From: Lytechinus pictus
Taxonomy: Eukaryota
NCBI RefSeq assembly: GCF_037042905.1
Contig: NC_087250.1
Location: 27,158,001 to 27,222,000 of the forward strand
Direction: 5' to 3'
DNA length: 64,000 nt
In this document: one piece after another, positions 7,072-56,045 of the stretch
How the letters are laid out: every line of letters begins with the position of its first letter
Position numbering within the stretch: the first letter of the stretch is position 1
Translations under genes and position numbers: made by a program
Notes under the pieces: generated by a model
Seen by the model: the letters and a program-made list of their open reading frames with translations, nothing else
What the model was told of the DNA's origin: nothing
Database searches by the model: none

Positions 7072-7247
7072 CATTCGTTTTGATATACCATGCATTGGTG
7101 TAATGAACATGATATTCCATTGCTTTTTAGCAGTTTCTTGAATGTTTTCCTTTTCCGGTGGAAATTTAATTCTTTTTGCTAACATAGACTGATTAAGTAT
7201 CTAGTTTAAGTATAATATTTTTTTGTACTTGTAAATAAACTTTGATT

Positions 7248-10200: not shown

Positions 10201-10249
10201 AAAGGAGATATAAAACTCAACTTCTCAGTAAATATTCAAATAATGTATG

Positions 10250-10250
<1 letters not shown>
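7248..10250 (+). CDS. LINE ORF2: AP-like endonuclease + reverse transcriptase
   Basis: APE motifs HVNCRS, TETW, GGGVGIYI, YRPP, GDFNIN, IDNIFTN, SDHLP. RT motifs NYRPISVLP, QYGFR, DLSKAFDT, GVPQGSILGP, LFADDT. No stops over ~1000 codons. Confidence 0.95.
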
Positions 10251-11972: not shown

Positions 11973-12317
11973 CTGATACAGTATTCTAAAATTGGGTTTT
12001 CATGTGTATGTTGATGTTGACAGGGATGGGATGATCATTGCTGCTCAGGAACACCAGCCTAATATCTACGTCATCAATCCTGCCAATGATAAGATAGTAA
12101 ACACTATTACGATGAAGGTTAAGAAGGTGTTGGGTGAGATACAAGCCCTGTCATCAGGTGATATCGTTGTGAAGACAGGTAATGATAAATACACTGTCAT
12201 CTCACGATCAGGAAAAGTGAAGGCTGTCATACACTGTGATGAGTGGAACGTACCACAGTGTCGCGTTGACAAACTGACAGACACACTCTACATCGCGTAC
12301 TGGGATAGAGGGCGTAA

Positions 12318-18013: not shown

Positions 18014-19031
18014 TTTCTCTCCCCTCCTAATATAAAAGTTGTTTACCTGTGGTATAAAGAAATATGCATTTCATACATATTAATATGCAATTCTGTCACT
18101 TGTAATTCACCTTAAAATAACAAAAACATGATAATTGAACCATTATACCAATTATTCAATGTATCATACTATTGGTTTACCCATGTCCGTTTTCGATAGT
18201 AGAATAAACATTCTTTACTGTAATACCTTCACATATCCAAGTATAAATATTATTCTGTAATGAAACCAAGTCTGTCAAATTTACATCTTTGTGAGTTTAA
18301 CTGTGTAATAAAATATCACTCAACCAAAGTAACTGTTCGTTTTGGGTAATTATTTGTGTTTGCTTCTCTAGTACTTATAAATTTTTAACATATGCATCTC
18401 TCATATTTAATGAGTTTGTTAATGTTAAATCTCCAAAGAACCTACTTTTCCATGGTTCATGGTAAAAACTGAACATATTATCTCCAAAGAAAATAAGTTA
18501 ATGCTACTGTTTGTAATAGTTAACCTTTAACATCAATATGCAAAATAAACAAAACAACTGGTCACAGACTTTTGTGACACCTTTGAACACCAGATGCAAT
18601 AACACCAATAAATCTTTAACTCACATAGTTTCAACAAGTCTACTGGGTTGCTTTCTTACCCTGTCAGATCTTCTCAACCTGAAGCTGTCAGGTTTGGGAA
18701 AATCCACCTGATTCCCATTTGTTTCATTTTCCATACTACCCATTCGTTGAGATGGTTCTAGCATAGACAAATCTGCCCTAGTTTGAGGCTCCCTGGTACC
18801 AATACCTATTGGATCTCTACCAACATCATTGTATCTACTCTGTAACTTTTCTATCTCTGTATCTAAGTCAAACTCTGTACCTGGAGTTTCAGTCTCTCCA
18901 TCTTCCTTTACTAATCTAGGCAACAATTGATCTACATGTCTTCGCCATACCCCTTTCTCAACCTGTACTTTGTATCCTAAAGGACCTTCCCTGTCTACTA
19001 TTTGACCTGGTACCCATCTAATCCTTCCTAC

Positions 19032-20529
19032 CACTGGCGTAAATCCGTGTTGATGGGTGGGGGGGATGACTGAAATATTTTGGCATTTTTTTTGCAATCA
19101 TGTTTTTAGATATGCAAGGAATTGCCATTGATATGTCCACAGTGGCGTACCGTGGGTCACGGCATGGGGGGGGGGGGCACCAGCAAAAAAATTGAATCAC
19201 TGAGTGAGTGCGCTAGTGAGCGCGCTCAGTTGCCAGTTATACTGACCTAATAGAGACATTTTTAAGGACAATGTCATTAAACTGATATGTATCTCACTGA
19301 TCAAATAATGCGAGCGCGAAGCGCGAGCTGAAATTTTTTTATATTCACACCTAAAAAGGGACATTATAATCAAATTTGTGTAAACATGATAGGTACCTGT
19401 CTCGCTAAACAATGCGAGCGCGAAGCGCGAGCTGAAAATTTAGATAATTCAGACCTGAAGTGGGGCATTCTAAGGTTTTTTTGTAAGAATTAACTAGGAC
19501 CATACGTATTTCATTAACCAAATGATGCGAGCGCAAAGCGCGAGCTGAAAATGTTTGATATTCAGATTAGAAGGGACATTTTAAGGACTGATTTTAGTAA
19601 TTTATGAAAAGCAGACATATCTCACCAATCCACTAATGCGAACGTAATCACGGACAGGAAATGTTTCATATAAACGAAGACCTTAACATGGGGCAATCAC
19701 TTTTTGAGTCGTGAAAAAGAAGCATATGTCACTACATAAAACAATGATAACTCAAGTGCTAGGAAATATATTTGGTTTATATTGACTTGAAAACGGGATG
19801 TTTTAGTACAACAGGATTATATATCACGTTAAACAGACAATGCGAGCACCAGGAACAATGAAGACGTAGGCCCTGGGCAAATTATGTTTCATAAAGTTAT
19901 GATAAATATGTTTCTTTTGTAATGTAACATAACATAATTATAATATAATATAACATTATAATGAATAATATTTTCTTCTTTCCCACTACGTTTCTCTTCC
20001 TTTCTCCCTCTTTTTCCTTTTCCCCTTTCCCCGTTTTTTTTTGGGTCAGCCGATGGGGGGGGGGGGGGGGATGTGCCCCCCATGCCCCCCGTAGTTACGC
20101 CACTGTATGTCCATATGGCAAATACCCCTCCAATATTATTATCTTTTTTACCCCATGATGGTTTAATGGTTTTATTAGAGATTACATTAAAAAAAAATTG
20201 ACATTCCATCTTAATCCCTTCCCAAAGACCCCAACATTGATGAATTGGAAGAAACGGGGATTTCTCTTCAATGTTATAATAAGGACATAAGTATTTCGTT
20301 TGGAAATGGTGAACTGGCTCTTTATTTGCATTTTATGATTCAATAATATTGTTTTATTTGTTAAGCGGTATTTTAGGAAGAATTTTCACCAATAAAACAA
20401 TTATCTCTTGTGATTTTTTTTTCATTTATTTCGCAAAAAGTGGGGGGGATGTTTGTACAGGCCATCCCCCCCTCCTCGAAAAGTGGGGGGGATATATCCC
20501 CCCCATCCCCCCCGGGATTTACGCCAGTG
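19032..20529. mobile_element. hAT-like non-autonomous element inserted in the Gypsy integrase
   Basis: TIR cactggcgtaaatcc / ggatttacgccagtg, 8-bp TSD CTTCCTAC (19024-19031, 20530-20537). Confidence 0.9.
19140..20105. mobile_element. Second hAT-like element nested inside the first
   Basis: TIR cagtggcgta / tacgccactg, 8-bp TSD TATGTCCA (19132-19139, 20106-20113). Confidence 0.9.
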
Positions 20530-23500
20530 CTTCCTACACAATCACGGGCCAAAACATGGTCACCTATCTCAAATTTTCGCAATCTATTGGTCTTCCTGTG
20601 TGTTTCTCTCTGCATGGTTTGCTCGTGTAATTGGCTCGCAAACCTTCTTGTGACGTTAGGGCTGAGGTTATCCAACCTACTACGCAAAGGTCTATTCAAG
20701 AACAACGCTGCGGGAGATTCGCCCGTAACCGAATGTGCGGCATTCCGGTATGCCAAAAGAAATCTGACCAATCTCGACTGAACATTTCCTGCGTCTGATT
20801 TGGATGCTCTCAGTGCTTGTTTCACTGATTGTACGAAACGCTCGGCCTGCCCATTTGTACTCGGATGATAGGGCGCGCTTCGCTTATGCACTATTCCATT
20901 CAACTTCATGAATTCTGTGAATTCCGCGGATGTAAACTGTGGACCATTGTCCGATACTAGGATCTGTGGTAGTCCAAATCTTGCAAATATGCTTCTCAAT
21001 GCTTCAATGGTTTTCTCGGTAGTAATATTTGGCATAATAGTCTCCTCTGGCCATTTACTATATGCATCAACAACAATCATGAACATCAGTCCTTCCAAGG
21101 GACCCGCAAAATCTACATGAATCCTCTCCATAGGCCGCGTTGCTGGGATCCATGGATGCAATGGACTTGGCGATGGTTGCTTCTGAACCACCTGACATGT
21201 TTGACATTGCTTCGCCGCATCTTCAATTTGCGCATCAATGCCAGGCCACCATACATGGCTGCGCGCAATGGCCTTCATTTTGACTACGCCTAAGTGCCCT
21301 TCATGTACTTCTTGCAAAACTGCACTGCGCATTTTCAGTGGTACCACGATTCGCATTCCCCATAACAAAATTCCTTTTTCTATGGTAATCTCGAATCTGC
21401 GCCCATAGAAGCCTTGCAGATCTTTGTCTGCTTCCGGTAACCGCTTAGGCCACCCATCTAGAGAATAGCGCATTACTCTCGACAGTGTATTGTCCTTGCG
21501 CGTCGCGTTGCGCAATTCCTCATAACTCATCGGTAAAGTATCTACGTGACAGATAGCTACATTTTCCGGTTCTTGAACATCCGGTTCTTCCTTTCTGTCA
21601 GGTAACCGTGAAAAACAATCGGCATTGGCATTCGCTTGGGATGTACGATATCGAATATCATAATCAAAGCCTGCCAGGTACATCGCCCATCGCTGCATTC
21701 GTTCGGCTGCTAGAGCAGGCAAGCTCTTGTACGGTCCGAATATAGCTGTGAGTGGCTTATTGTCAGTCACCAGTGTGAACTTACGACCGAATATATACAT
21801 GTGGAATCTTCTAAGTGCGAACACTATCGCCAACGCTTCTCTCTCTATTTGCGGATAATTGCGTTCTGCCTTTGTCAACGCACGTGAGGCAAACATGACT
21901 GGCCTTTCCTCACCACTCGCATAAATTTGCGATAGAACCGCCCCTATTCCTATCGGACTGGCATCCGTGGCAACCGTCATCGGTAAAGTCGGATCAAAAT
22001 GTGCAAGAAATCCCGATGATTTCAACAATGACTTGGAGCGTAAAAATGCTCGCTCTGCTTCGATATTCCACACAAATTTTCGTTCTGACTTCAATAAGTC
22101 TGTAAGCGGCGCGATTTCGTGGGCCAAGTTAGGTATGAACTTCCTGTAATAGTTCAATAGGCCTAAATAAGACCTCAACTCTGAAACACTTTGTGGTCTT
22201 TCTAGCTCCTCGAGCTTCTTCATTTTGTCGGGGGTCTTATGTACTCCGCTCCTATCAATGACATGCCCCAAAAACTCAATCGATTCTTGCGCAAACCTGC
22301 ATTTCTCCTGCCTTAGAGTGAGATTTCTCTCTTCTAAGCGCGTGAGCACTTTGTCTAGATTCTCGTAGTGCTCTAGCTCAGTACGACCGATTACTAAAAT
22401 GTCGTCTAGGTATACTTGGACACCCGGGAGTCCTTGCAAAACTTGTTCAATCGTCTGCTGCCAAATACTCGGTGCGCTGGTAATTCCAAACACGAGTCGA
22501 TTCTGTTGATAGAAACAGACCCTTGTGGGTTGAGAGTATCAAATACTTCTTTGACTCTTCATCGAGTTCCAACTAATTGTACGCATGTGCCAAGTCTAAC
22601 TTCGAAAAGAGGACCCCTCCATTCAAATTCGCTAGAATATCTTCGACATTGATATTTGGAGGAGGTACCGGTTCGAGATTTGGATTCACTGTGGTCTTAT
22701 AGTTACCGCAAATTCGTACGCTACCGTCTTTCTTGGGCACGGCCACTATGCCTGTGCTCCACCTGGGTAAGTACGCCATTTTCTTGCAAGCGCGTCAATT
22801 CTTTTTCCACTGCTCCCTTCATCGCATAAGGTACCCGAAACGGTTTTGTTACGACCGGCTGTGCATCTTCGCGTACTGTGATATGCGCCTTGACTTTTGT
22901 CAGACGGCCTAGCCGCTGCTCAAACAAGCGATCATGTTTGCCCAAAATCTTATCTAAGCTATGCACTGCCGTAACTGCCTCAGTACTTCGCGAACTAGTA
23001 CTTCTACCAGACTGGGAGATTATTGCAGCCCAATCTAACTTTATAAAACTCAACCAATCTCTGCCGAATAACACAAACTCGGTGTCTACAACGTACAACA
23101 TCAAACTACCTCTGAAGCTCCCATATTTTACTTCTACCTCTATCTTACCTCGAGGTACAGTCTCACCTGGACTTATTGACACGAACACCTTTACACTAGA
23201 CTCTAGAGGAATATGAGTAAAATACTGCATATACATGCTGTACGGAATTATACTAACACCTGAACCGGTGTCCAACTCCATAGCGATCTTGTGACCCTCT
23301 ATCTCTACCTCTACTATTATTGGGGGTGGGGCATTACCCTCTGAATTACCAACTGAGTGAACCTCATTCTTGAACATAGTAGTACGATCATAATCCTCAT
23401 TATGGCCAGTGTGCCTATCATCATACCTATCATACTCTTCTTGTGTTTCATTTGCACCAACCTTCTTTACACTACTTCTCTTAACGTCTCTCTTTTGATT

Positions 23501-24438
23501 ACTGTCTCTGTCTTTCTTTACATCAAATTTATACTTTTCACAGTCTTTGCTCCTGCATTTTCTAGCAATATGCCCCTTCTTTCCACATTTTCTGCACTGT
23601 CCTCGGAAGCTGCACCCTTTCGCCAAATGTCCTTGCTGTCCGCAACGAAAACACTCAAAGTCCTTGTGCTGGTTCTGCTGTCTTCCTGTTCCAGACCTCT
23701 TAGACAGGTGCGATGCGCCGGGATTGCCCTGACGCGCGCCGGGATAACCCTGGCGCTGGCCGGGATTGCCCTGACCAGAAAACATTGATCCTGCTCTCCT
23801 CCTCTGATCAGCTACTGCGTGCACAGAAACACCATCTGACCCCGTTCTCATAGCTTTCGCTTCTCCCAGCGTGACCTCACGATCCAGGGCAAAAGACACA
23901 GCATCCTGGAATGACCTTTCCATCAACTTTAAGGCTGTTCCTTCATCCTTAATTCCGCTGATAAACCTATCACGAAGCTGTTCATCGAGCTTATCAGCAA
24001 ACTCACAATTCAGACTCAAATGTTTCAGCTGCACAACATAGTCTTTCGTAGACTCTCCCTGTGCCTGATCCCTTCGGATAAACTTTCGTCTTTCCGCTAC
24101 AATAATCGGTGTCTTCTTATAATGTCTGCGTAATACTGCTTTCAGCTCATGGTACGATTGATCTGCCGGCTTAGCTGGGGCTAACAAATCCCTAGCTCTC
24201 TTATAAACATCTGCTCCTAACGCATTCAGAAACACTGCCACCACCTTCCTCTCCAACGCTCTCTCCGCCGGAGTCTGCTGGGCGCCGCCCGGTGCAGTCG
24301 CCTGTGGGACCTCGTAGCCGTGCGCTACCAAATGAAGCTCAAAGCGTTCGATATAACAATCAAAGTCCTCGTCCCCCAACTGTCCGAAATTACTCACATT
24401 TGCCATCATGACATTCCCCAACCAACTCGTCGCCAAAC

Positions 24439-24650
24439 TGTTGTGTATTTATAGGGTTCTTTATAGGGAACATCCAGTAATCAGTCTCGAAGACTACAAC
24501 TGTGTTTGATCAACTTTCATCTTTAATACGCACAAACTCTGGATTCACACTACATCAAGTTCGTATAACACGGAGTTCAATGAGTAACTATGTCGTTACT
24601 ACGCTATCTATGAAGTGCCAACTGTATCAATGAAATATGTATATCTAACA
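24439..24650 (-). repeat. 5' LTR
   Basis: Near-identical to 17802-18013 and followed on the minus strand by the PBS. Confidence 0.95.
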
Positions 24651-43733: not shown

Positions 43734-44396
43734 GGGTTCTATAACAATAACCCAATTAGGGCAATCATCCCCTGACAACTACTTGAAGGAAAATATGATC
43801 CCCATATTTTTACCACCGGGGACTGTTACCCCCGGAAATTTACCCTCCAGACAATTACCCCGGATAATTACCCTTAGTACGGAGCCTTTACAATACCATC
43901 GACGTGATGACATGGCGTGATACTTTATCTTGCCATGTATAATTAATAAGCTTATTATTTCGACATGGCGATATATTCTATCTTGTCAAGTCGATATGTC
44001 GACATGGCGAGATATGAAGTGTACAAGTCCCGGCGAGAAGCCCGATATATCGCCATGTTGACATATAACTTGTTACAAGTCGACTTGGCAAGATAAAATA
44101 TCTCACCATGTTGACGTATAACTTTTTATATGTGGACCTGGCAGGATAACATATCTTGCCATGCGGACATAATAAGCTTATTTAGTCGACATGGCAAGAT
44201 AAAGTATCTCGCCATGTCGTCAAGTCAATGGCATTTGAAAGGCTCCGTACTAGGGGTAATTGGCGTCTAGAGGATAAATTTTCGGGGGGGGGGGGGGTAA
44301 CAGTCCCCGATGTTAGAAATATGGGGATAATATTTTCCTTGAAGTCCATGTAGTCGTCAGGAGGCGATTGTCCTTTGGGTCATCGTTATAGAACCC
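43734..44396. mobile_element. ~660-bp composite palindrome (fold-back element with a nested palindromic MITE 43878-44249)
   Basis: Outer arms gggttctataac … gttatagaaccc, inner arms tacggagcc … ggctccgta with internal gacatggc repeats. Confidence 0.8.
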
Positions 44397-44476
44397 CATG
44401 GACTCGTATCATTTACCTTTTGACCCGTCTTCATGACATTGGATCTCACTATATCCTGATCATAATTTTACACACA

Positions 44477-44595
44477 CCGCGGACTATCGGACCCGCGGAC
44501 AATCGGACCCGCGGTCTATCGGACCCGCGGTCTATCGCACCCGCGGACTATCGGACCCGCGGTCTATCGGACCCGCGGTCTATCGGGCTGTAACC
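44477..44595 (+). repeat. 16-bp tandem repeat (GCGGWCTATCGGACCC) x7
   Basis: Direct inspection. Confidence 0.9.
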
Positions 44596-45302
44596 GATAT
44601 TTCGATCTGTCAGAGAACAAGAGTCGATTTGTTGATATGGTTTTTAATTGATTTCTTAATATAGTTTTACTATTGGCAAAAGGAGATATGTGTGTGGGGG
44701 GGGGGGGGGGTCCACGGAACCGTAGTGCCCCCTCTTATATCGTTTCGACCTTATAGGTTGGCAATCAACTCACTACAGATACCAGGATTTCATTTATTTG
44801 TTTACTCAGTACTCTGCTGAAGTCAAAGGTTAATATAATGTTGTCTTTTTTGGCCAAGCATGCACAAATCTAACTCGGCCCTATGGCTGGTTTGTGTGCA
44901 GTTTACAAGACGCATAAAAGCTCGAAACTTGATAGCCTGGAGCGAAGAGACCGATCGCTCGTGGGGCCCTCTTGTATTTTAGGGAGAGATTGAGGATTTA
45001 GGGCAAATTATTGGGCCTTTATTTAATTTTCAGCACCATTCACCTCACCTGAGTCGATCGAGTGCAGCACAGTGCGGGTAAATTTCTTGCTGAAAAAACA
45101 GAGAGGGCATCAGGTTGTCGCGGACCCACCCCCACATCCCCGTTTGCCAACACCAAAACTGTACTTTGTAATGTTTGTAATGCTACAACAATCTAAGCCA
45201 TGTACGGCCATGCTTAGTTGGTCTGGATTGGTTTTGACTGTAGCAATATGTTTTGGTTTTGATTTGTTTCTTTCTACATGTAACCCAGATTAACAGGAAG
45301 AC

Positions 45303-45579
45303 ATGGAAGATTTTGATGAACTTTTGATCAAAGTTGCCAAACGAGTCCAACAAAACTCGGAAATCGACACATTAGGAAAAAAACTTGAATTCCCTCCAGA
45401 AGATGTTGGACGTTACATAGCAACTAATCACAAAACACAAAACATTACTTGGGATGGAACTCTTCAGATGCTCCGGGATTGGCGTAAAGGTCAAGAAATT
45501 GCTAAAGAGAGAGATAATTTGGAGACTGCTCTGAAGAAAGCAGGTCAACTTCGTCTTGCTGAGGAACTCTTTCCTTCAA
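45303..45579 (+). CDS. Coding exon 1 of gene B: N-terminal DEATH domain
   Basis: FDELLIKVAKRV…EIDTLGKKLEF…DVGRY…GTLQMLRDWR…LETALKKAGQLRLAEELF is a classic death-domain pattern (ML..W, L..AL, LAE.L). Acceptors at 45288 and 45296, in-frame TAA at 45291 upstream of the ATG, A|GTAAGA donor (phase 1). Confidence 0.88.
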
Positions 45580-46206
45580 GTAAGATAAAGAAAATAATAT
45601 TGAAACTGTTAAAAATCTCATTTATTAGGAAGAAGCATCAAGGTTTTTTTCTTCTGACAATGCATTACATGTTTCATACTATTACACCATGCTTATTATT
45701 TTGTTGTTTTTGATGCTATAGTAATTGTCTCTCTTTACTACTCCATGACGATAATGATGAAAATAATAATAACAGTCAAAATAATAATACTAAAAAAATA
45801 ATGATAATAATATAAATAATAATATCAATAATAATAATAAAAGTACTGATGATAATAATAATAATAACAATAAACAAAATAATCATAACAATAATAATAA
45901 TGATAATAATAGTAATACAACTAAAATTCATATTTTTTAGATAGTGAAATACATTGTGAATGCAGTTGGTTTTCTAAAAGCAGTTTCCCCACAATCCTTT
46001 TTTTTCCATTGTTTATGTAGAAATGTAAAAAATTGTTAGCTCACGCTTCGCGCTCGCATTTTTTGATTGTTAAAATATATACGTCTCCATGGCTAAGTGC
46101 AAGCAGCCCTTACTGGTAGGGCCTACTTTTAAACAGTTCAAAACGTACATAAAAGTTATCTGCTCCCGCTTTGCGCTCGCATTATTAATTTAAGGAAGAT
46201 CCCCAA

Positions 46207-48989
46207 TTACTCATCCTGATCATGATTTCCAAAACATGAATAGAGTGTCTCGTTTCTAGGTCTAAATCTCGAAATTTACCGCTCGCGCTTCGCGCTCGCA
46301 TCAGTTGTTAAGTTATATATCTATTCTGTTTAAGTTACAAAAAGGGCTTGTAATGTAACGTCTTCATGGCTAACTGGAAGCAGTAGGTAGGCCTGCCTTT
46401 TCGATCAGTTCAAATCGTGTATCAAAAATTTCTGCTCGTGCTTCGCGTTCGTAGTCAGAAGCGGATCTAGAGGGGGGGTTGGGGGGGTTGCAACCCCCCC
46501 AAAAAAAAAATCCGGGGACCATTTTTTTAAATCTTATCTTTTTTTAAAAACTTTTCATGGGGGTTAATTTGGCAACGACCTCTATACCAAAAAGAGTGGT
46601 GTTTTAGATGCAAGAAAACGCCATTTTCACACACAGATTTTCAAAAATTTTCCCTACTGTGGGAGGGGGGACACCCCCTCTCACACCCTCCCCCCTCGCT
46701 CGCTCCGCTCGCTTGGACTCGGTCGCTACGCTCCCTCGCATACCACCCCAACCCCCCCTTTATAAAAAGCTGGATCCGCCCCTGGTAGTAATTATGTAGT
46801 TGCAAACACATCTTTTTCAGGATACCAAACATTGCCTAGAATGTTCAAATTTTAGGAAAAAAAATATGTTAAATTTCAAAAAAAATTGCTGGCGCTCCGC
46901 GATCGCATTTTATAAATAAGGATTACGATATTATACATTTATGTTGATTTATAATAATAAAACTAAGAAGTAACTACTAGGACTACACCCTTTAAAGAAA
47001 CAAACAAAAATCATGTTCGAAAGGCCGACCGTGGGAAATATAGCTGAAAAAAAAATTCCGCCCCCCTTCCCTATTGGCGAAGGCTGGATCCGCCCCCGTG
47101 TTCTGTAGACATACAGTTACCGAACCATTGTATTCTCACTCACAAGTAATAACTCCCGGGGTGGGGGACGGGTAATCAGAACAATGGACATTCATGGAAG
47201 GAGGGGGGGGGGGGCGACGTTACATATTGTAATACAATTCATTTATTCTCTTCTGATATCATTTACTACATCATTTTGACACCAGTACTATATACTACTT
47301 CATGCTGGAATTAAATTTCACTCATCAAACACTCTAGCCGATCATTATCTTTTACTTTAATAGAAGCAACCAAGATTCCCATTTACATTGACGAGTGGAT
47401 ACCATGCGCGACCCAAACAATAAACACGTAAAAAGGATATCCTTTTCAAGATAGGGCACATCAGGTACGTAATGTAATAAGGGTGTCAAAAACACTTAAA
47501 TAATGAAAAAAAGGTATCAAATTTGCTAGGAAAGCTACGTGTTTAGGGTCAAATTTTCGGCGGTAAAAAGAAAAAAATGTTAAATGATGTACTTTTTGAC
47601 CCGACAGTCAACACTACGTGTTTAGAGTCCGATTGGCTTGAGACGTGGGAGTTGGGGTCGTACTAATAACTAAACCAAATGATGTTGGTAGAACCGATGT
47701 CCAACATATCGCTGTACTCGTTGTTTAGGGTTTCAATTCAGGGAATACTTGCGAAGGGTATCGTTACTCATCCTGATCATGATTTCCAAAACATGAATAG
47801 AGTGTCTCGTTTCTAGGTCTAAATCTCGAAATTTACCGCTCGCGCTTCGCGCTCGCATCAGTTGTTAAGTTATATATCTATTCTGTTTAAGTTACAAAAA
47901 GGGCTTGTAATGTAACGTCTTCATGGCTAACTGGAAGCAGTAGGTAGGCCTGCCTTTTCGATCAGTTCAAATCGTGTATCAAAAATTTCTGCTCGTGCTT
48001 CGCGTTCGTGGTAATTATGTTGTTGCAAACACATCTTTTTCAGGATACCAATCATTGCCTAGAATGTTCAAATTTTAGGAAAAAAATAATATATTAAATT
48101 TCAAAAAAATTGCTGGCGCTCGGCGATCGCATTTTATAAATAAGGATTACGATATTATACATTTATGTTGATTTATAATAATAAAACTAAGAAGTAACTA
48201 CTAGGACTACACCCTTTAAAGAAACAAACAAAAATCATGTTCGAAAGGCCGACCGTGGGAAATATAGCTGAAAAAAAAGTTCCGCCCCCCCCCCTCCCCT
48301 ATTGGCGAAGGCTGGATCCGCCCCCGTGTTCTGTAGACATACAGTTACCGAACCATTATATTCTCACTCACAAGTAATAACTCCCGGGGTGGGGGACGGG
48401 TAATCAGAACAATGGACATTCATGGAAGGAGAGGGGGGGCGACGTTACATATTGTAATACAATTCATTTATTCTCTTCTGATATCATTTACTACATCATT
48501 TTGACACCAGTACTACATACTACTTCATGCTGGAATTAAATTTCACTCATCAAACACTCTAGCCGATCATTATTGTTTACTTTAATAGAAGCAACCAAGA
48601 TTCCCATTTACATTGACGAGTGGATACCATGCGCGACCCAAACAATAAACACGTAAAAAGGATATCCTTTTCAAGATAGGGCACATCAGGTACGTAATGT
48701 AATAAGGGTGTCAAAAACACTTAAATAATGAAAAAAAGGTATCAAATTCGCTAGGAAAGCTACGTGTTTAGGGTCAATTTTTTCGGCGGTAAAAAGACAA
48801 AAATGTTAAATGATGTACTTTTTGACCCGACAGTCAACACTACGTGTTTAGAGTCCGATTGGCTTGAGACGTGGGAGTTGGGGTCGTACTAATAACTAAA
48901 CCAAATGATGTAGGTAAAACCGATGTCCAACATATCGCTGTACTCGTTGTTTAGGGTTTCAATTCAGGGAATACTTGCGAAGGGTATCG
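46207..48989 (+). repeat. Near-identical ~1.23-kb tandem duplication in the intron (46207-47763 and 47764-48989)
   Basis: Both copies start ttactcatcctgatcatg and end gcgaagggtatcg. Copy 1 carries an extra MITE. Confidence 0.92.
46456..46784. mobile_element. MITE with 5-bp TSD present only in duplicate copy 1
   Basis: cagaagcggatc … gatccgcccctg flanked by GTAGT. Empty site gttcgtggtaatt at ~48005. Confidence 0.85.
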
Positions 48990-49478
48990 TTTTGCTTCCA
49001 ATACTTGTTAAAAGGAGGGTTTCACACGCCAATACTTGTTAAGGGGTGCATTTTCAGAATATGAAAAATACATGTTTATGGTGCTTTTCGGGACCCCATG
49101 GTCACGCATGGTATCCACTCGTCAATGAAAGTGGCCCCCGGGAGTTCCAAAGAGGCGACATGAAAGAGAAATGTTAAAGAATTTATGGATGTTTAATGTC
49201 CAGTTTTCAAGTAAATATGCACAGATTATTTTCGAGATTCGAGTTGTCATTATTTGTTAATTTTTCATAATATTAATAAAAAATAAATTCTCGAAATTAA
49301 TTGAGATTATAATTAAATGAATGTACAGTTGATATTGATGTAATATAATTGGATGATTAGATGTAATGAAACTGTTGTTGAAGACGAAAATATTTTATCA
49401 TATATCTTAGAATAGGTAATCATTCATTCGGATCTGTATATAGAACTGTATAAATGTGACGTATTTTTTGTATTTTAG

Positions 49479-50000
49479 ACACCATGGATCTTACTGGAGT
49501 GCGCAGGAAACCGAACGGTGATGACCCTTCATCGAACACCGCCCTCTCTCAAAATGAATTCTACGACATTTATCTCTGGGCATCGTCTAAAGATACAGAC
49601 TATTTTCGTAAAATGAAAGATTGTATTCATTCCAATAGATGGAAAATGACATCTTGTTTTGATCATAAGTTGGGTGAACTAGTGACGCAAAGCATCGAAA
49701 ATGCTCTCTTGAAATGCTCCCACATGGTATGTTTGATCACAAAAGATGACTGTAAAACAGACAACCTTCAACAGCTTATGACAATAGAGATGGCGATTCA
49801 GTCGCTTCCACGAACGACAGGAAAAGGATTAGAAGGCCGGGTTATTCCTATCCGTTGTGACGTTCCAGAATCTTTTCTTACTCCTAAACTGAAGGCATTG
49901 ACAGGAGCGAGTATTAAAGATCGCGACCTTGAAGAAAGACTAAGGAAAAGTATTAATACGAACATCCGGATGGAGAGAGAAGAAAAGGAGAATGTCACAG
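49479..50000 (+). CDS. Coding exon 2 of gene B: TIR domain
   Basis: ttttag| acceptor (phase 1) and G|GTGATT donor (phase 1). YDIYLWASSKD (box 1), DHKLGELVTQSIENALLKCSHMVCLIT (BB-loop/alphaB/betaC), RVIPI (betaD), TPKLKAL. Confidence 0.82.
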
Positions 50001-50230
50001 GTGATTTGATAGATTTATTTTCCCTACCAAAGGTATATTATTATTTGGCACATTGTGGTTATGTATGGGTAGTTTTACTCTAAATAGTCTACATCTATGC
50101 ACTACACTCAACCATCCGTAGCAAAATACACAGCGATGTAAAAAAATTCGACCCCGCTCTCCTCAAATCATCACTAACATGATGGTAATAAATAAATAGG
50201 ATTTAGGATATCATGGATATAGGAATGATA

Positions 50231-51812
50231 TAGTGCATACTAGAAAAAGGGAAACTGTTATAACTCAGTGATTTGTTCTCCTATATCATGATCATAAATT
50301 TACTTCATAAAGTGTACATGAATGAAAAAAATATACTTCTTTTTTTTTTCATTTGAGACCCGTCTAAACGTTCCTAATGCACGCATGACTGAGTTAGAAC
50401 AATGAAACGTCGTGCTACCAAATTTCCATTCGCACGTAAAATTATGTTTTTTGAGTGAGTTTTGCTGGTTTTTACTGCTATCTATTCGGAAAACGAATTT
50501 TATACCTTGAGTATAAAAATTTTCCCCCTCTTTCATACGAGACCTTATGCGTTAAAAATATGAATGACGCAAGCCATAGTCAAGAAAAAATGTTGCATTG
50601 AAACATGCTCGATTTCTTCCTATTCAATGGATCGTTGAAAAAACAAGCACTTCCTTTTCCCCCAACAAAGAAGGAAACAATCATAAAAAAGGTCGGTGAA
50701 GGAAACCCCTTTATTCAGTGGCTGCGGAAGCGGGGGAGGGGAGCCCATATCACATGGGCGTCAGAATATGTTTGATCGGGGAGGGGCGCAGCAGAAAAGG
50801 GTACGCGTACATCACTTTTTTTTACAATTGATGGGGAGAAATTCATTTTCGTGTTTTCCTTTAAATGAGTAACCCCGCCCTATCCAATATTCCACCGCCC
50901 CTACCTGGTCTTGTCATATGAAGCATATTTTTACAAGTTTTACAAATAGAATTCAAACATTACTTTCAAGCCAGCAATAATATCACACTCGCCGTGCATT
51001 CACTGGTATAGCCCGTTTTCTGTCGCTTGTTGGAAATACTCGTTTTCCTATGATCAATAGGGAGAAATCAAGCATCGCATGTCTTCAGGACACACACCAC
51101 TAACTATTTCCCCATAGACTCATGTGTTAAAAATGAGATTTGAAAAAATCGCAAAAAAAAAGTCTTAATAAGGACATCATTTAGGTTGTTCTTCCAATAT
51201 CTTTCAAACGCTAAAGATATGAAAAGGTGTTTTTCAGCATTTTTTCGCGCTACGGGGGCTCAAACCAAGACTACATGCAAACTTGGTTGCAGTGACAGTG
51301 CTCACAGGGTTTCTTGGGCAACTAATTAAGTTCCCATAAAATCCAGAATTGACAAATTACTACTCTCCCATAGGACTGAACAGATCAAGTAGTAATCCCT
51401 CTCTATGCCCATGTGAAAAAAAATGTTCAGATAGGCATTGTTTATTTCATTTGAATATTTTTTCCCAACCATTAAGGGTCTAAAGGGAGTTCCCTAAATT
51501 GCCTGATCCCATTAGTGGTGTGTGTCCTTCATGGATTTTTTTTCGACAATGTGTCAATCATATTTCATGCACAAGGTCTCATATGAAAGATGAAAAATGA
51601 ATATAAAAGTTTTGAACTTATTTTCCCAAATACATAGCAGTAAAAGCCAGAAAGAGTCTCTTTAATTCGTAATTTGCTTGTGCAAAATGAAATTTGCTAG
51701 CACCACTTTGTTCTAACTCAGTCATGCGAGCACTATGAACGTTGAGATGAGCTTCAAATGAAAGATGCGGAGCGTATCTTTTCATGGTTTCCTTTTTTTC
51801 TAGGACGCACTG
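50231..51812. mobile_element. Tc1/mariner-like non-autonomous element with long decayed TIRs
   Basis: tagtgcatactagaaaaagggaaac … gtttcctttttttctaggacgcactg|ta, with inner inverted match gcatgactgagttagaacaa / ttgttctaactcagtcatgc. Confidence 0.6.
51088..51527. mobile_element. Nested MITE with TTCA target duplication
   Basis: TIR ggacacacaccactaa / ttagtggtgtgtgtcc, TTCA on both sides. Confidence 0.8.
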
Positions 51813-51880
51813 TATATTGCACATAATTATCATCTTTGTTAGGCATGTTAGGTGCTCAAGGAACTTCTGTAGTCGGCTAA

Positions 51881-52482
51881 TTAAAGGACAAGTCCACCCC
51901 AACAAAAATTGATTTAAATAAAAAGAGAACATTCAAACAAGCAAAATATCGAAAATTTCATCAAAATCGAATGTAAAATATATGACATTTTAAAGTTTCC
52001 CTTAATTTCACCAAACAGTTATATATACATCCTCGTCGGTATGCAAATGAGGAGACTGATTATGTCATCCACTCACTAATTCTTTTGTATTTTATTATAT
52101 GAAACATGAAATATTTTAATTTTCTCCTCCTTGTCCGGTGGAACAGCAATTAATTCCTCCATGAAAATTTGGAATTAGTATTGTTTAATACTATATGGTT
52201 CAGTCAAGTTGGTCCTTATCGTCAAATCTGTAAAAAATGAAATATTGTATAATTTAAACAATAGAATATAAAATAAATAGTGACTGAGGGACATCATCGA
52301 CGATCTCATTAGCATGTCACTGATTTGTGCATATCACTGTTTTGTGAAAGTAAGCAAAAATTTTAAATGTAATAACTTTCTTATTTTACATTTGATTTTG
52401 ATGAAGTTTTCAGCATTATGCACGTTTGATTGTTTCTTATTTATTTAAATCAGCTTCTTTCTGGGGTGGACTTGACCTTTAA
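51881..52482. mobile_element. Kolobok-type non-autonomous element (TTAA TSD)
   Basis: ttaaaggacaagtccacccc … ggggtggacttgacctttaa. An extra right end sits at ~52605-52626, and the same family occurs at 56046-56640. Confidence 0.85.
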
Positions 52483-52801
52483 TGATGTTGATAAACATTA
52501 CTGAACGTAGTGGGTGCAAACACCTCAATACAAATAACTAACAAAATGTTTTTTTAGCGTTACGCTTGTCTTAATTTTCTCTACTTATTCAAACTCACAT
52601 TATTCTGGAGTGGACTTGACCTTTAAGCTAGACTACCGATTTAGGTGCTCGCAGCTTTTTGAAAAATTACCTTCTGCTGGTACCCAATTACCTAACCTGG
52701 GTTGGGTGCAGCGCAGTATGGGTAAAATCATCATTATTATTAACAAACATACTACCAAACATCCATAATTGAAGTATTTTAAACTATTATTTACGATATA
52801 G

Positions 52802-54390
52802 GTTGCTATGTGTGTCAACCTGAAAGAGATGTAACAAGAAAGCGACGCTATGTCAAAATGTCTTCTGGTCGCCCGAGCACTACCAAAGACGACGAACAGA
52901 AACAACGTGAGCTAGATGAGATGAGGAAGAAGCTGAATGAGAAACGGGCCATGTTAGAGGAAACAAAGCAAAGACACAAGGTAGTTGAATCGAAAATTGA
53001 AGCCGTTTCAAATTCATCAAGTAAGCATTTTCAAACGATCCATGGTGATATCCAGGAGACATTGGACAAAACATTACTAAAGTTAAAAGTTAAAGAAAGG
53101 GAAAATATAGAATGCATTAATGAGATAAACAAGGACGCAGATAAGCAAATAACAGACATAAATAAAAAGCGACAAAAAAGGATAGAAGCTAAAAAGGTCG
53201 AGCTAGAACGGGAACGAAAAATAATCAAAGACAATGAAGCCAAACTGTCATCATGTATAACAGACAAAGATGAAATCAGGAAAAAAGTTTCCGAGAAGAT
53301 AAGCGATGTTAATAGTAAGATTCAGGATGCAATAACGAATATTGAATTCACCATCACACGTATAAACCAACATGATGAAACATTGGTGAATGAAGCTCCT
53401 CAAGTACTTGCATCTATTGATGAAAATTTAAGTTTGAATGTTCATCAAGATGTTAGCGTCTGTCTTGACCGAATACAGAGTGAAGTTGAGAGAGTGAAGT
53501 TTGTAGAGGGGGAAGTAGGTGGAAAATACTATGGTAGAATTGATGGGTATATCAGTAATTGGGAACTTGTCAAGTCAATTCACATTCCATCGGTTGTTAA
53601 TAAGCCGTATGTGTGTGGTTTAGTCAGTGATGATGAGATATGTGTGCGAGACGTAGGTAACAATGACATGTATATTACAAACATCAACACTCAACACACA
53701 GAGAAAGTCATTGATGGAGGTGTGTGGATTACATCATGTGCGCCCATAGACAGTAACGTAATAGTATGTGGTAAGGTGAGAGATGATTGCACGGGTGACA
53801 GGTTGGATGGATGCATCACTCTCTATGACAGACAATTGAACGTGATTAGAGACATCAGCATACCAATGAATAGATACGGTTATAATAGTGTGTATGTTGA
53901 TGTTGACAGGGATGGGATGATCATCGCTGCTCAGTACAATCAGTCTAATATCTACGTCATCAATCCTGCTGATGATAAGATAGTAAACACTATTACGATG
54001 CAGGGTAAGACGGTGAGGGGTGGGATACAAGCCTTGTCATCAGGTGATATCGTTGTGAAGACAGATTATAATGAATACACTGTCGTCTCACGATCAGGAG
54101 AACGGAAGGCTGTCATGCACTGTGATGAGTACGAGTGGGGCTGGAGCTCAGAGTGTCTCGTTGACAAACTGACAGACACACTCTACATCGCGTACGTGGA
54201 TACAGTGCGTAATACCATTGCAATTGATCAGGTGTCACGTGATGGTATCATCCAGGCAAGGAGGATCGTGGAATACGTGAAATCAGATCGCACTATATTC
54301 ATGGGCCCTTGTCTCGTTACTCCTTCTGGTAACCTCGTAGGGTGTGATGGAGACAAACTTCTTATCTACAAGAAGACATTAATCTTGTAA
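52802..54390 (+). CDS. Coding exon 3 of gene B: long coiled coil + C-terminal beta-propeller (NHL/TRIM-tail-like)
   Basis: gatatag|GT acceptor in phase 1. ~200 aa E/K-rich heptad region, then beta-rich repeats (VYVDVDRDGMIIAA, IYVINP, IQALSSGDIVV, LVTPSGNLV), 529 codons to TAA. Confidence 0.85.
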
Positions 54391-56045
54391 ATAATCTAGA
54401 CTATCAAAGGAATCATATCGGATTTGTAAGAGAAATATAGACCAGAGATTTGTTTTCACTTTTACTTCCATTTCAATTTACGTCCTTCTATCTCTATATG
54501 TACGTGACTACATTCATATACACATGGCCATGGTGTGTATAATGTCGTATCAATCCATATCAAATAGAAAACTGTCGCTAATGTCCACTCCGTCTAGATT
54601 TAGGTCTGTAATGAATGCACTCAGATCCAAATGAATAGTTTACTCGAAACCTGAACAAAATAAATGCAAAATGTGTTAACGAATTGCCTACTTGAACCAG
54701 ATGGTTATTGTAGAAAGTCTTTTAGAATGGCTGAATTCAGTATTGAACGTGTTAATAACTTATTTCTGTGAAGTGAACCCGATCATTTACCAAACGACAT
54801 TTCGTTCAATTTCATTCGATGTTATTCTCCTAATAGTGATCGGGTTATTCCTCGATTAAAATTGCTCTCAATTTTAAGGTATTTGATTCGAATCAATTCA
54901 TCAGGACCCCATTTCATAAAAAAAATGTTGGCTATGAAAACAACTCTTGCTAAAATGTCAATTACCATGACAACAATAACGATTCTGCTTCCTGATTGGC
55001 TCATCCAATGAAATTTGATATTCAAACTGGAGTTGTTATCATAGCCAGGTTTTATGAAATGGTACCCTGGTTGATTTGATTTTTTTTTATTCTGTGGTAA
55101 AAAAAAAAGTGGGAATGGGTCAAAACTGTATGAAATAGAAGTTTCGTAATGTACACAACCCCCCCCCCCTCATGAAGTTAGATTAAAATAAGATAAAATC
55201 TCGTAAATAATGGTGTTTAATAGGGTTCTTGTTTAGTCTACATTCATATGACAATATGAAGGGAAAGGGATAATGTTTCCCGTATAATTCTTTTTTTCGC
55301 CAATTAAATATTCTCTAGTCATGTATAACAAAATAGGTGAGATTTTTCTCAAATATATTTAGCACACGGTATATTCATCATATTCCTGAAAGTATTGCAT
55401 CATATTACTTATTTCAATCAGTTCATTTTTCTTCGCTTGTACAACTTTTATTTTATCCTCATATCGCTTAATATTTTCAACATAGATTACTGATTAATTG
55501 TATCCCTACACGAATAATATCATCTTACACATTGGCTACCTGACTTTCAAATCTTAAGTAACAATGATATGGAAGTGAAACATTTTTTAAAAATAGGTAT
55601 TTGTGTCGACGTTCTGTAATGATGTGTTCGCATTACTACGTTCAGTTATGTTTATCAACATCATGAAATTATGTCAAATTAATTTCATTATAAAGATCAT
55701 ATGTCAATAAAAAAAAAACACATGATAGGCTAGCGTACAATGCTGTAAATAAATAAAACAGGAATCTATTTTGTTTAACAGACAGGATTAGATAATTTGT
55801 CAAATATCTGCCCATAATGTAGCTTTTGTTCGTGGTTTCATGATAATATAATATATAACTCGATTCAATCCATTTGTTTATTTTGTTTGCATTTTAAATT
55901 GTGTTTAGTGTGTAAACTGGAAGTCTATTCCAGAGGCATTAGCTAAAGTGAATATTTTTTTAGATGAAAATGGTTGTATTCTTCTGATCATAATTTATTT
56001 ACATTGTAGTAATCCTTATACATGTGCCCCCTATATCTCTCTCTT

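Follow-up and report, generated by a model that had tools for sequence, protein, structure and literature searches.

A Sea Urchin Gene That Joins Death and TIR Domains to a TRIM-type Coiled Coil and an NHL-like Propeller

A three-exon gene of the sea urchin Lytechinus pictus encodes a 795-residue protein whose Death and divergent TIR domains precede a coiled coil and a predicted six-bladed NHL-like β-propeller. The gene is real, and its initial annotation is confirmed exactly. With about even confidence, it is interpreted here as a lineage-specific chimera produced by exon shuffling, which encodes a putative Pyrin/TRIM5-like sensor with a Death/TIR assembly output.

Gene Structure and Transcript Evidence

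The sequence is from NC_087250.1 (GCF_037042905.1), positions 27,158,001-27,222,000 of the forward strand, and coordinates are those of this 64,000-nt stretch as a whole (the window). It had been proposed that three open reading frames join exactly; when exons 45303-45579, 49479-50000, and 52802-54390 were joined by script, they were in frame and gave 2388 nt, corresponding to 795 codons and a single terminal stop, and the product is identical in every letter to the 795-aa RefSeq "uncharacterized protein" P0004 of L. pictus. The four-part protein is therefore already a RefSeq model, under an "uncharacterized" name, and its paralogs form a series that differ by exchanged heads. A stop-to-stop ORF spans each of the three exons. 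The start ATG at 45303 has an in-frame TAA 9 nt upstream, and no Met-initiated frame begins at the 5′ edge of exon 2 or of exon 3. Reading of the sequence shows both introns to be GT..AG and in phase 1, with caa/gtaag at the exon 1 donor (after 45579), ttttag/ac at the exon 2 acceptor (before 49479), cag/gtga at the exon 2 donor (after 50000), and atatag/gt at the exon 3 acceptor (before 52802); exon 2, with 174 codons, is symmetric (1-1). The features of the gene are as follows.

45303..45579, + strand: coding exon 1 (277 nt, ending in phase 1), ATG and Death domain, residues 1-92
45580..49478, + strand: intron 1 (GT..AG, phase 1), containing repeat-derived stretches and, at 45751-45917, a simple repeat of the ATA type
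49479..50000, + strand: coding exon 2 (522 nt), linker and divergent TIR domain, residues 93-267
50001..52801, + strand: intron 2 (GT..AG, phase 1), mostly repeat-derived around 51804-52451
52802..52878, + strand: start of exon 3, basic linker of low confidence, at the position of the B-box in paralogs
52879..53493, + strand: coiled-coil region, exon-3 residues 26-230 (AF2 model)
53497..54381, + strand: six-bladed NHL-like β-propeller, exon-3 residues 232-526 (predicted structure)
54388..54390, + strand: stop codon
54391..54664, + strand: probable 3′ UTR, to the first AATAAA at 54659 (predicted from AATAAA and contig coverage)

The junction 50000^52802, for which a transcript check had been suggested, is present as a GT..AG joint skipping 2801 nt (cut +2) in one assembled contig each of X1 and X18, public runs that are not recorded as RNA, with a shorter side of 80 nt. 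Over 269 nt of exon 2, the X1 contig differs at 1 letter; that of X18 differs at 6 letters and may derive from the 97%-identical sister locus. The 15 joints listed, of 43, do not include that between exons 1 and 2, for which the support comes from the RefSeq model, from the reading frame, and from an X18 contig that covers 45288-45579 and ends exactly at the exon 1 donor. In X1 the exons are covered and depth is zero in the intron bins of unique sequence (45648-45971 and 50184-50831); summed depth is very high on the intron 1 repeats 47268-47591 and 48888-49211, and contigs of both X1 and X18 span 54365-54698. In X21 and X22, which are recorded as RNA (raw reads, ∼6% of each read), exon depth is 0-0.8, indicating that expression is low or absent in those samples. 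The assembly contains no intron-less copy, and all three TIR+tail loci retain introns of 3-4 kb.

Domains of the Product

The Death, TIR, coiled-coil, and six-bladed propeller folds suggested by the initial annotation are all supported by predicted structures. In the domain checks proposed with them, the AF and Foldseek folds match, Pfam Death and TIR_2 fall below their cut-offs, and the Pfam NHL model is unmatched. The product is cytosolic, without a signal peptide or hydrophobic span (maximum Kyte-Doolittle value 1.1).

The Death domain is matched by Pfam with an E value of 5.3e-4 (20.5 bits versus a cut-off of 22.6; profile positions 4-82 of 86). Its model has six helices at residues 4-89, with pLDDT mostly >90, and aligns in VIA-align with the PIDD/RAIDD DD 2of5_H (Z 12.3, 90 residues aligned, rmsd 3.1) and RIPK1-DD (Z 11.6, 86 aligned, rmsd 2.5). 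Exon 1 shares 62-75% identity with urchin Death proteins, and of 10 such proteins 5 exceed the Pfam Death cut-off; its nearest relatives are urchin tandem-Death and Death-NACHT proteins, not MyD88. Relative to the closest copy it has 11 non-synonymous and 0 synonymous differences, and dN/dS versus another copy is 0.53, values that suggest no clear constraint.

Residues 95-112, between Death and TIR, are disordered in the model (pLDDT <50), and β-α elements of a TIR fold follow at 121-266. Pfam matches TIR_2 (E = 4.5e-4, 21.1 bits versus a cut-off of 28) and not the TLR/IL-1R-type TIR model, but the top-ranked Foldseek matches of the head are TIR domains, the best being oyster TIR-STING, and VIA-align Z values are 13.2 with the TRAM TIR and 12.1 with the MyD88 TIR. 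In hhalign, the TIR-family profile matches the bona fide TIR protein P0138 with a probability of 96.3% (E = 1.8e-9). The match of a family profile to solved TIRs is weak (BtTir, E = 0.023). Among 1.84 billion proteins, 21 are related to the TIR exon at E ≤ 0.001. Of 10 looked up, all 8 with names are echinoid, and of 20 scanned, 11 match TIR_2 at E ≤ 0.01 and 4 have Death above cut-off; the nearest form an echinoid-only Death/TIR family that is not MyD88. The description of the head as MyD88-like is therefore apt for the domain order, but not for these relatives or those of the Death exon. Values of dN/dS for the TIR exon are 0.29-0.32 versus paralogous copies (dS ∼0.25) and 0.14 versus a donor-like gene, and the ratio of ∼0.3 points to purifying selection. 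In a BB-loop-like stretch of the alignment, the L. pictus protein departs from the family consensus, with Leu in place of Pro.

The tail has no Pfam match, including to the NHL model, and Pfam and domain scans find no B-box in the 795-aa protein. Following exon-3 residues 1-25 (pLDDT <50), the AF2 model has coiled-coil helices at 26-114, 118-188, 191-209, and 213-230 (pLDDT ∼83-96) and a propeller of ∼29 strands. The propeller aligns with the NHL domains of Mei-P26, Brat, Thin, TRIM3, TRIM2, and Lin41 with VIA-align Z values of 21.6-23.6 (247-263 residues, rmsd 3.0-3.6, identity 12-16%), versus ∼18.3 for seven-bladed Gβ chains, and its target-normalized Foldseek TM with Brat NHL is up to 0.73; in the predicted structure it is six-bladed and closest to TRIM-NHL domains. 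Among paralogs, the coiled coil has a median dN/dS of 0.39, with no value >1 in 120 pairs, which suggests purifying selection. In the NHL region of 16 paralogs the median is 1.42 and 113 of 120 pairs exceed 1, at a dS of only 0.075; the pairs are mutually non-independent, and gene conversion complicates the estimate; bootstrapping places dN − dS at 0.007-0.054, with 1% of replicates ≤0. The hypervariable positions lie in loops and recur about once per blade, and this pattern, with the excess of dN, is as expected of a recognition surface. For the whole tail versus copy 3, dN/dS is ∼1.0, a value that relaxed constraint would also yield.

Paralogs and Origin

Echinoids have a large family of ∼550-aa proteins with B-box, coiled coil, and NHL but no RING, and the tail is a member of it. 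At E ≤ 0.001, 117 proteins are related to exon 3, and many of them carry a B-box; the exon is 56-72% identical to direct paralogs over 93-97% of its length, and in these the B-box (PF00643) lies in the N-terminal part aligned to the start of exon 3. The proposal that the head replaces RING/B-box is correct for the B-box, which these paralogs carry, but not for RING, which the parental family lacks. The L. pictus genome has at least 80 tail matches at E ≤ 1e-30, many in tandem on the + strand of contig C6 at 27.0-27.95 Mb. Within this 1-Mb cluster on the same chromosome, other tail paralogs have heads of Death only, Death+B-box, or TIR only, and another copy combines Death with a ZU5/Death tail. 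The Death+B-box copy uses the same acceptor as the Death-TIR gene, and Death-to-tail splicing through this acceptor is modeled in P0062 and P0146. Such modular heads indicate that exon shuffling is ongoing in the cluster. Of three Death+TIR loci, only the gene at 45303-54390 is intact; the tail and Death exon of copy 2 and the Death exon of copy 3 are broken, so the head does not appear to be strongly maintained.

The gene may have originated when a Death exon and the symmetric phase 1-1 TIR exon were placed before the single large exon of a RING-less TRIM-like gene, with loss of its B-box. The TIR exon would have been copied from the echinoid-only Death/TIR adaptor family, which lies on this chromosome at a distance of 3.4 Mb.

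DISCUSSION

Like MyD88 (Death - intermediate domain - TIR), the protein has a Death domain, a short disordered linker, and a TIR domain, and these match Death domains of the MyD88 complex (3mop, Z 9.1) and the MyD88 TIR, respectively; unlike MyD88, it has 528 further residues of coiled coil and propeller, and only the TIR_2 model is matched, below cut-off. Orthology with MyD88 is rejected on the basis of the nearest relatives of both exons. The succession of coiled coil and six-bladed NHL is shared with TRIM-NHL proteins (TRIM2, TRIM3, TRIM32/Thin, TRIM71/Lin41, Brat, Mei-P26, and NHL-2), which are conserved single-copy RNA-binding regulators, but RING, B-box, and filamin domain are missing and the many genes of the tail family form a cluster that is diversifying rapidly. 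The echinoid B-box-coiled coil-NHL genes (RefSeq "uncharacterized" or "TRIM5-like") are paralogous in exon 3 and have the same pattern of NHL variability. They have their own Met and B-box in that exon, whereas the Death-TIR gene has an acceptor and basic linker there and takes its N terminus from two upstream exons. Oyster TIR-STING, bacterial TIR_2-WD40 proteins, and plant TIR-NLRs also unite TIR with a separate sensing or repeat domain in a single chain, but none joins it with Death and a TRIM-type coiled coil; the present propeller is of the NHL type rather than WD40, and there is no NACHT/NB-ARC switch.

It is very improbable that the gene model is an artefact in which ORFs of two or three separate genes join by coincidence. 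The exon 1-2 junction is missing from the joints listed, and in older annotation the sister locus was divided or fused in another way, the models P0005 and P0077 differing between annotation releases and the present assembly. However, two runs have contigs that cross from exon 2 into exon 3, exons 2 and 3 lack initiating frames of their own and have consensus splice sites in matching phase, two paralogous loci show the identical layout of three parts, and the shared acceptor is spliced to Death exons in P0062 and P0146. A real gene might nevertheless be a young, near-neutral by-product of a shuffling-prone cluster, with low transcription and no maintained function, and heading for decay. This is unlikely, but it would be consistent with stops or frameshifts in two of the three Death+TIR loci, the whole-tail ratio versus copy 3, the exclusively non-synonymous changes in the Death exon, the near-zero depth in two RNA-seq runs, and the varying sister-locus models. 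On the other side are the intact 795-codon frame and four of four splice sites and the low TIR dN/dS between copies at dS ∼0.25. The NHL excess of dN is common to intact B-box paralogs and falls mainly in loops, whereas the coiled coil that this exon also encodes is under constraint, a combination that does not fit plain decay.

The remaining alternatives concern the output. Cleavage of NAD+ is known for the TIR domains of SARM1, plant TNLs, and bacterial TIR proteins, and clustering of a sensor with an enzymatic TIR could trigger NAD+ depletion or a nucleotide signal, with Death providing a second, scaffold output. The match to TIR_2 rather than the TLR/IL-1R-type model points in this direction, as do the Foldseek matches, of which several of the best are bacterial (BtTir, PdTIR, TcpB, and AbTir, one of them NAD+-consuming) in addition to oyster TIR-STING, and the cluster of bacterial TIR_2 + WD40 propeller proteins among the Atlas structural neighbors. 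Glu196, in a family-conserved motif, begins the helix that follows strand C, close to the position expected for the conserved TIR Glu, but hhalign pairs the Glu of the W-C-x-x-E motif of a true TIR with Gln instead, with ambiguous gap placement, and the scaffold TIRs of TRAM, MyD88, and TRIF reach equal or higher Z; an enzymatic role is considered quite doubtful. Distinctly improbable is a negative regulator or decoy, whose Death and TIR would sequester canonical TLR/Death partners and whose coiled coil and NHL would serve localization only. Short MyD88 isoforms and SARM are vertebrate precedents for sequestering, and the adaptor-like order of Death and TIR, the BB-loop-like Leu, and low expression in two RNA runs agree with it. 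This leaves the dN>dS of the propeller loops unexplained; the relatives of the head are echinoid-specific families rather than MyD88, and its binding to the canonical pathway is putative.

In the sensor with a Death/TIR assembly output, the hypervariable face of the NHL propeller would bind a non-self or danger ligand, and two chains would be held together by the TRIM-type coiled coil. A multivalent ligand would cluster them and bring Death and TIR domains close, and these may nucleate homotypic assemblies that recruit downstream Death- or TIR-bearing signaling proteins. Overall, this would be a Pyrin/TRIM5-style sensor with its B-box exchanged for a Myddosome-style output. Ligand binding, dimerization, signaling, and any immune role are putative, and the proposed receptor or adaptor function is supported indirectly by the purifying selection on the TIR exon and the dN>dS of the propeller.

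Pyrin/TRIM20 consists of PYD, B-box, coiled coil, and B30.2 without a RING and acts as a sensor in the cytosol, where its death-fold head seeds a signaling assembly. The Death-TIR protein resembles it in having a six-helix death fold before a TRIM-type coiled coil, a C-terminal recognition domain, and no RING, but has a Death domain proper instead of PYD, an added TIR, no B-box, and an NHL propeller in place of B30.2/SPRY. A closer parallel still is offered by L012, a paralogous locus with the order Death - B-box - coiled coil - NHL. In PMC3137616, the Pyrin domain is counted among TRIM-associated domains as a death-fold member. The likeness is convergent, a fusion without common descent. Pyrin/TRIM20 is thus a known precedent for a death-fold head on a TRIM body, and the L. 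pictus product is a plausible candidate for a new type of cytosolic immune sensor.

Gene Structure and Transcript Evidence

The gene lies on the forward strand of the window, and a stop-to-stop ORF encloses each of its three exons. The following boundaries were read from the window sequence.

45303, + strand: start codon ATG, opening exon 1 (45303-45579)
after 45579, + strand: exon-1 donor caa/gtaag
before 49479, + strand: exon-2 acceptor ttttag/ac, opening exon 2 (49479-50000)
after 50000, + strand: exon-2 donor cag/gtga
before 52802, + strand: exon-3 acceptor atatag/gt, opening exon 3 (52802-54390)

Spliced in silico, the exons give 2388 nt, or 795 codons and a single terminal stop, and the joined translation is identical letter for letter to the 795-residue RefSeq entry "uncharacterized protein LOC135154451 [Lytechinus pictus]," the best match of the exon-3 product; public records thus already hold this gene model, though without a name. 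The three-exon join proposed in the initial annotation is thus borne out to the base, in splice sites, length, and RefSeq identity. A TAA lies in frame 9 nt 5' of the ATG. Both introns are in phase 1, so that the intervening 522 nt of exon 2 form a symmetric 1-1 exon, the loss of which by skipping would preserve the reading frame.

Four public sequencing runs were compared with positions 45000-54700 for contigs, joints, and depth; X1 and X18 have no record as RNA, and X21 and X22 are recorded as RNA, about 6% of each being read. One 349-nt contig in X1 and one in X18 contain a joint with GT..AG ends across a gap of 2801 nt; with the cut moved by 2, it is 50000^52802, the junction predicted by the initial annotation between exons 2 and 3. 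Each contig has 269 nt in exon 2 and 80 nt in exon 3; the exon-2 part differs from the gene by 1 letter in the X1 contig and by 6 in the X18 contig, which might therefore originate from the 97%-identical sister locus. Because this joint is present in contigs and the assembly contains no intron-less copy able to give such a contig from DNA, splicing is shown, for exons 2 and 3 alone; no 45579^49479 joint is among the 15 of 43 joints listed. An X18 contig covers 45288-45579 with 0 differences and ends precisely at the exon-1 donor, and its unplaced letters (29 before and 73 after) suggest an upstream 5'-UTR exon and onward splicing. In X1, the exons have depth and the unique bins of the introns (45648-45971 and 50184-50831) have none. 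In X21 and X22, depth is almost nil on the exons, and a look-up of public runs for exon 3 listed no RNA run. Two intronic segments, 48888-49211 and 51804-52451, where summed contig depth runs into the thousands and RNA reads map to either strand, are high-copy interspersed repeats outside the gene proper.

The Death and TIR Domains

Exon 1 matches the Pfam Death profile (positions 4-82 of 86) at E = 5.3e-4 with a score of 20.5 bits, short of the 22.6 cut-off. Its relatives are 11 other urchin proteins with 56-75% identity, the nearest being tandem-Death and Death-NACHT proteins; Death was found at E <= 0.01 in 9 of 10 scanned (above the cut-off in 5) and NACHT in one. In the model of the head (residues 1-267; 22 sequences in the alignment, mean pLDDT 84), residues 4-89 fold into six helices, residues 95-112 form a disordered linker, and residues 121-266 consist of beta-alpha elements. 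Comparison of residues 1-95 by VIA-align with a target set of 48,161 chains gave Z values of 11.2-12.3 for Death-domain structures (PIDD/RAIDD Death, 12.3; FADD, 11.6-11.8; RIPK1, 11.6, with an rmsd of 2.5 over 86 residues), although it should be noted that values below about 13 may be generic for helical bundles. Exon 1 is thus predicted to encode an N-terminal Death fold.

Exon 2 matches Pfam TIR_2 at E = 4.5e-4 with 21.1 bits, short of the cut-off of 28, and this protein has no match to the TIR model PF01582. A search of 1.84 billion representatives found 21 relatives of the exon at E <= 0.001; 8 of the 10 looked up are named, and all are echinoid, annotated as "uncharacterized" or as UNC5-like Death/TIR proteins. 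Among 20 scanned, TIR_2 occurs at E <= 0.01 in 11 and above the cut-off in one, a bona fide TIR, with which the family profile aligns in hhalign with a probability of 96.3% and E = 1.8e-9; Death occurs in 6 of the 20, above the cut-off in 4. When the head was searched with Foldseek, the top-ranked structures were TIR domains (oyster TIR-STING; bacterial BtTir, PdTIR, and TcpB; MyD88), and VIA-align gave Z values of 13.2 for the TRAM TIR and 12.1 for that of MyD88. The family profile matched solved structures weakly (a designed Rossmann protein, E = 3e-4; BtTir, E = 0.023; TRIF, E = 0.34), and sequence searches of the three exon products against the PDB returned nothing useful. A TIR domain following the Death domain is accordingly the structure indicated by the models.

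The Coiled Coil, the Propeller, and Their Paralogues

In the tail model (83 sequences in the alignment, mean pLDDT 87), residues 1-25 of the exon-3 product form a low-confidence linker, aligned to the B-box of the paralogues, followed by helices at 26-114, 118-188, 191-209, and 213-230, all of high pLDDT, and about 29 strands. The helices are modeled as a long coiled coil behind the N-terminal modules; its dimerization would be expected by analogy with TRIM proteins, and a two-copy complex prediction for exon-3 residues 20-235, run without controls, scored 0.00 and gave no verdict. VIA-align matched the propeller to the NHL domains of Mei-P26, Brat, Thin, TRIM3, TRIM2, and Lin41 at Z values of 21.6-23.6, as compared with about 18.3 for seven-bladed G-beta chains, and a WD40 propeller was rejected on this ground; the Foldseek TM was up to 0.73. 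A Pfam scan of the tail gave no match, NHL repeats being undetected at E <= 1, and the six-bladed NHL propeller is thus assigned by predicted fold. The Pfam matches include no RING, whether for the exons (E <= 1) or for the entire protein (E <= 0.01), and no PF00643 B-box was found in this protein. A signal peptide or membrane anchor was ruled out, there being no hydrophobic span in 19-residue windows. The protein is cytosolic.

The exon-3 product has 117 relatives at E <= 0.001. Paralogues of about 550 residues from Lytechinus and Strongylocentrotus (database proteins P0007-P0104) match it at E values of 1e-122 to 1e-235 with 48-70% identity, and their own Met and B-box open the same exon as the tail; their Pfam record is B-box alone, except for one chimeric model, P0105, and RING was not seen in any of them. 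The Atlas structural neighbor of the tail is an echinoderm B-box cluster (TM 0.74); an ESM Atlas search by features gave no usable match. Across coiled coil and propeller, the alignments point to homology with an echinoid B-box/coiled-coil/NHL-like family. The description of the tail as TRIM/NHL-like in the initial annotation holds for the predicted coiled coil and six-bladed propeller, and the suggestion that Death and TIR replaced a RING/B-box output holds for the B-box, which is missing here, but not for RING, which the paralogues also lack. The folds that had been expected (Death, TIR_2, and propeller) were recovered, although Death and TIR_2 fall below their Pfam cut-offs and NHL is unmatched.

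The Gene Cluster and Head-swapped Loci

The genome contains at least 80 tail matches at E <= 1e-30, many of them tandem copies on the + strand within 27.0-27.95 Mb of contig NC_087250.1. The TIR exon is present in this cluster in three copies (100%, 97%, and 83% identity), and a fourth (61%) lies at 23.84 Mb inside the Death-Death-TIR gene LOC129263083, for which L. variegatus and S. purpuratus possess orthologues. Copies of the Death exon give 92 matches at E <= 1e-5, and several cluster members are preceded by one.

Table. Architectures of this gene and its paralogous loci (G000:C6, contig NC_087250.1 of assembly GCF_037042905.1)
This gene: Death - TIR - coiled coil - NHL; intact
Copy 2 (L009/L010, G000:C6:27026501-27041500, 173 kb upstream): degraded Death, TIR 97%, broken tail
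Copy 3 (L011, G000:C6:27857001-27866500, database protein P0006): Death with two stops, TIR 83%; TIR and tail intact
L013 (head of RefSeq protein P0146, directly upstream of the window): Death - coiled coil - NHL
L012 (G000:C6:27946501-27951500; exons at 998-1273 and 2394-4042): Death - B-box - coiled coil - NHL

The tail of copy 2 is 92% identical over 310 residues and then contains a frameshift and stops, being closer to a B-box paralogue; two older RefSeq models, P0005 and P0077, seem to divide this region in different ways. The L012 Death exon is 90% identical to that of this gene, with the same flanks, and its tail exon, about 1.1 kb downstream, has the same acceptor and closely similar first few residues but keeps the B-box. 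L012 is likely to be an intermediate form, and a parsimonious order of assembly would have the Death exon captured first, the B-box lost next, and the 1-1 TIR exon inserted last, within the phase-1 intron. Upstream of the Death exon, L012 and this gene have the same repeat-like ORF, in which a short peptide motif recurs (window 44354-44664 and L012 74-355), so that at least about 900 bp of 5' flank belong to the duplicated segment.

Elsewhere in the window, the + strand pieces 793-966, 1582-1743, and 4032-4325 correspond to residues 871-1079 of P0146 (LOC135154580, 1081 amino acids) and are its last three coding pieces; this entry is a long read-through RefSeq model with the order Death - coiled coil - NHL - ZU5 - ... 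- C-terminal Death. Segments 11627-11704, 11989-12315, and 12980-13126 (+) are three separate stretches of a paralogous NHL propeller, 70-85% identical to residues 596-795 of this protein and lacking a coiled coil, and are probably a pseudogene fragment. Two long ORFs of 295 and 1003 amino acids occupy 6184-10250 (+), and the longer, to judge by eye, resembles a LINE-type retrotransposon ORF for endonuclease/reverse transcriptase; those at 18621-24448 (-), of 158, 721, and 575 amino acids and interrupted around 19889-20372, similarly resemble gag/protease/RT/integrase of an LTR retrotransposon.

Selection

All dN and dS values are Nei-Gojobori estimates. The TIR domain is constrained: dN/dS is 0.32 between this gene and copy 3, 0.29 between copies 2 and 3, and 0.14 against the donor-like gene LOC129263083, for which dS has reached saturation (1.9). 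Between the Death exon of this gene and that of L012 there are 11 non-synonymous and 0 synonymous changes, and dN/dS against L013 is 0.53.

For the whole tail, dN/dS against copy 3 is about 1.0, an average that hides two regimes. These were resolved in a set of 16 intact tails, those of this gene, copy 3, L012, and L013 together with 12 high-scoring stop-free matches on the same contig from the at least 80 (loci other than this gene: L011-L013 and L015-L026), which give 120 pairs that are not independent. In the coiled coil, median dS is 0.37 and median dN/dS 0.39, with none of the 120 pairs above 1; in the propeller (window 53497-54381), median dS is 0.075 and median dN/dS 1.42, with 113 of the 120 non-independent pairs above 1. 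A codon bootstrap (500 replicates) of the mean propeller dN-dS gave 0.007 to 0.054, with 1% at or below 0. Exon-3 positions with at least five residue types (267-271, 325-327, 358-362, 403-405, 447-448, and 497-500) are in loops, roughly one cluster per blade. The combination of low dS with dN > dS would fit gene conversion together with diversifying selection on a binding face, and suggests that the whole echinoid B-box/coiled-coil/NHL family may be a recognition repertoire.

Discussion

The order Death then TIR is common to MyD88 and the head of this protein, and this much of the MyD88-like head described in the initial annotation stands. However, MyD88 is a two-domain adaptor, whereas this protein has 528 more residues after the TIR domain (linker, coiled coil, and propeller), and MyD88 is not its nearest relative: those of the Death and TIR domains belong to other families, and phmmer retrieved no MyD88 among PDB sequences. 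A long coiled coil is shared with the TRIM/RBCC proteins, but without RING or B-box, and the protein belongs to neither the MyD88 nor the TRIM family. The system closest to it in its presumed working is Pyrin/TRIM20, in which a PYD is carried on a TRIM body, a death-fold head on such a body being found here also; the Death - B-box - coiled coil - NHL arrangement of L012 parallels it as well. PMC3137616 names the Pyrin domain alongside TRIM domains.

Sea urchin and amphioxus are documented to have expanded their TIR, Death, and NACHT genes on a large, lineage-specific scale and to have shuffled the domains of these genes (PMC2858798, PMC2575513), and the phenomenon is therefore known. The available text of these two papers has no B-box, NHL, or propeller, "TRIM" occurring in that of PMC2858798 only within "trimmed." Neither a Death-TIR-coiled-coil-NHL protein nor the echinoid B-box/NHL expansion was found described in the full-text literature that could be searched, most subscription journals aside, and protein-database searches returned no such fusion from L. 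variegatus or S. purpuratus. The initial annotation, which knew of no characterized protein with this architecture, agrees with the literature searched, but there are several head-swapped paralogues, a RefSeq entry, and the conceptual precedent of Pyrin; the interpretation in that annotation is a reasonable hypothesis, and the gene is less singular than it supposed.

We regard it as an even bet that the gene product is a ligand sensor with a Death/TIR output. The propeller would bind ligand and the coiled coil would pair chains, and clustering by ligand would let Death and TIR nucleate homotypic assemblies, taking the place of the B-box, which in TRIM5-type proteins is a higher-order assembly module. 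That the gene is instead a near-neutral young chimera is supported by the decay of two sister loci and the low RNA depth; given beside the constraint on the TIR domain, this explanation is considered unlikely. We think it rather less probable again that the output of the TIR domain is enzymatic; Glu196 is conserved within the TIR family, and hhalign places the Glu of the reference TIR elsewhere, with gaps nearby. A role as decoy or negative regulator is distinctly improbable, and an artefact of the gene model, set beside the exon 2-exon 3 joint, extremely so.

A broader proposal extends the ligand-sensor reading, and we advance it tentatively and with considerable doubt. Sea urchins may have germline-diversified cytosolic pattern receptors on a RING-less TRIM scaffold, neither NLR nor TLR, in which hypervariable NHL propellers would recognize pathogens and a few members, only this one intact in this genome, would wire recognition directly to Death/TIR supramolecular signaling in one polypeptide; if so, they would form a new class of intracellular immune receptor in animals, caught mid-assembly by exon shuffling.

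If the gene is functional, a TRIM-type recognition scaffold can plug directly into Death/TIR signaling, in parallel with the PYD on the TRIM body of Pyrin but with domains of the Toll pathway. Knock-outs are feasible in L. pictus, a laboratory urchin, so that the hypothesis is open to test. The cluster keeps apparent intermediates (Death with B-box, Death only, TIR only, and decayed copies) and is a rare natural series for the assembly of a new immune receptor by exon shuffling. On the propeller loops, dN strongly exceeds dS while dS itself is low, which makes the whole B-box/coiled-coil/NHL family a candidate echinoid recognition repertoire.
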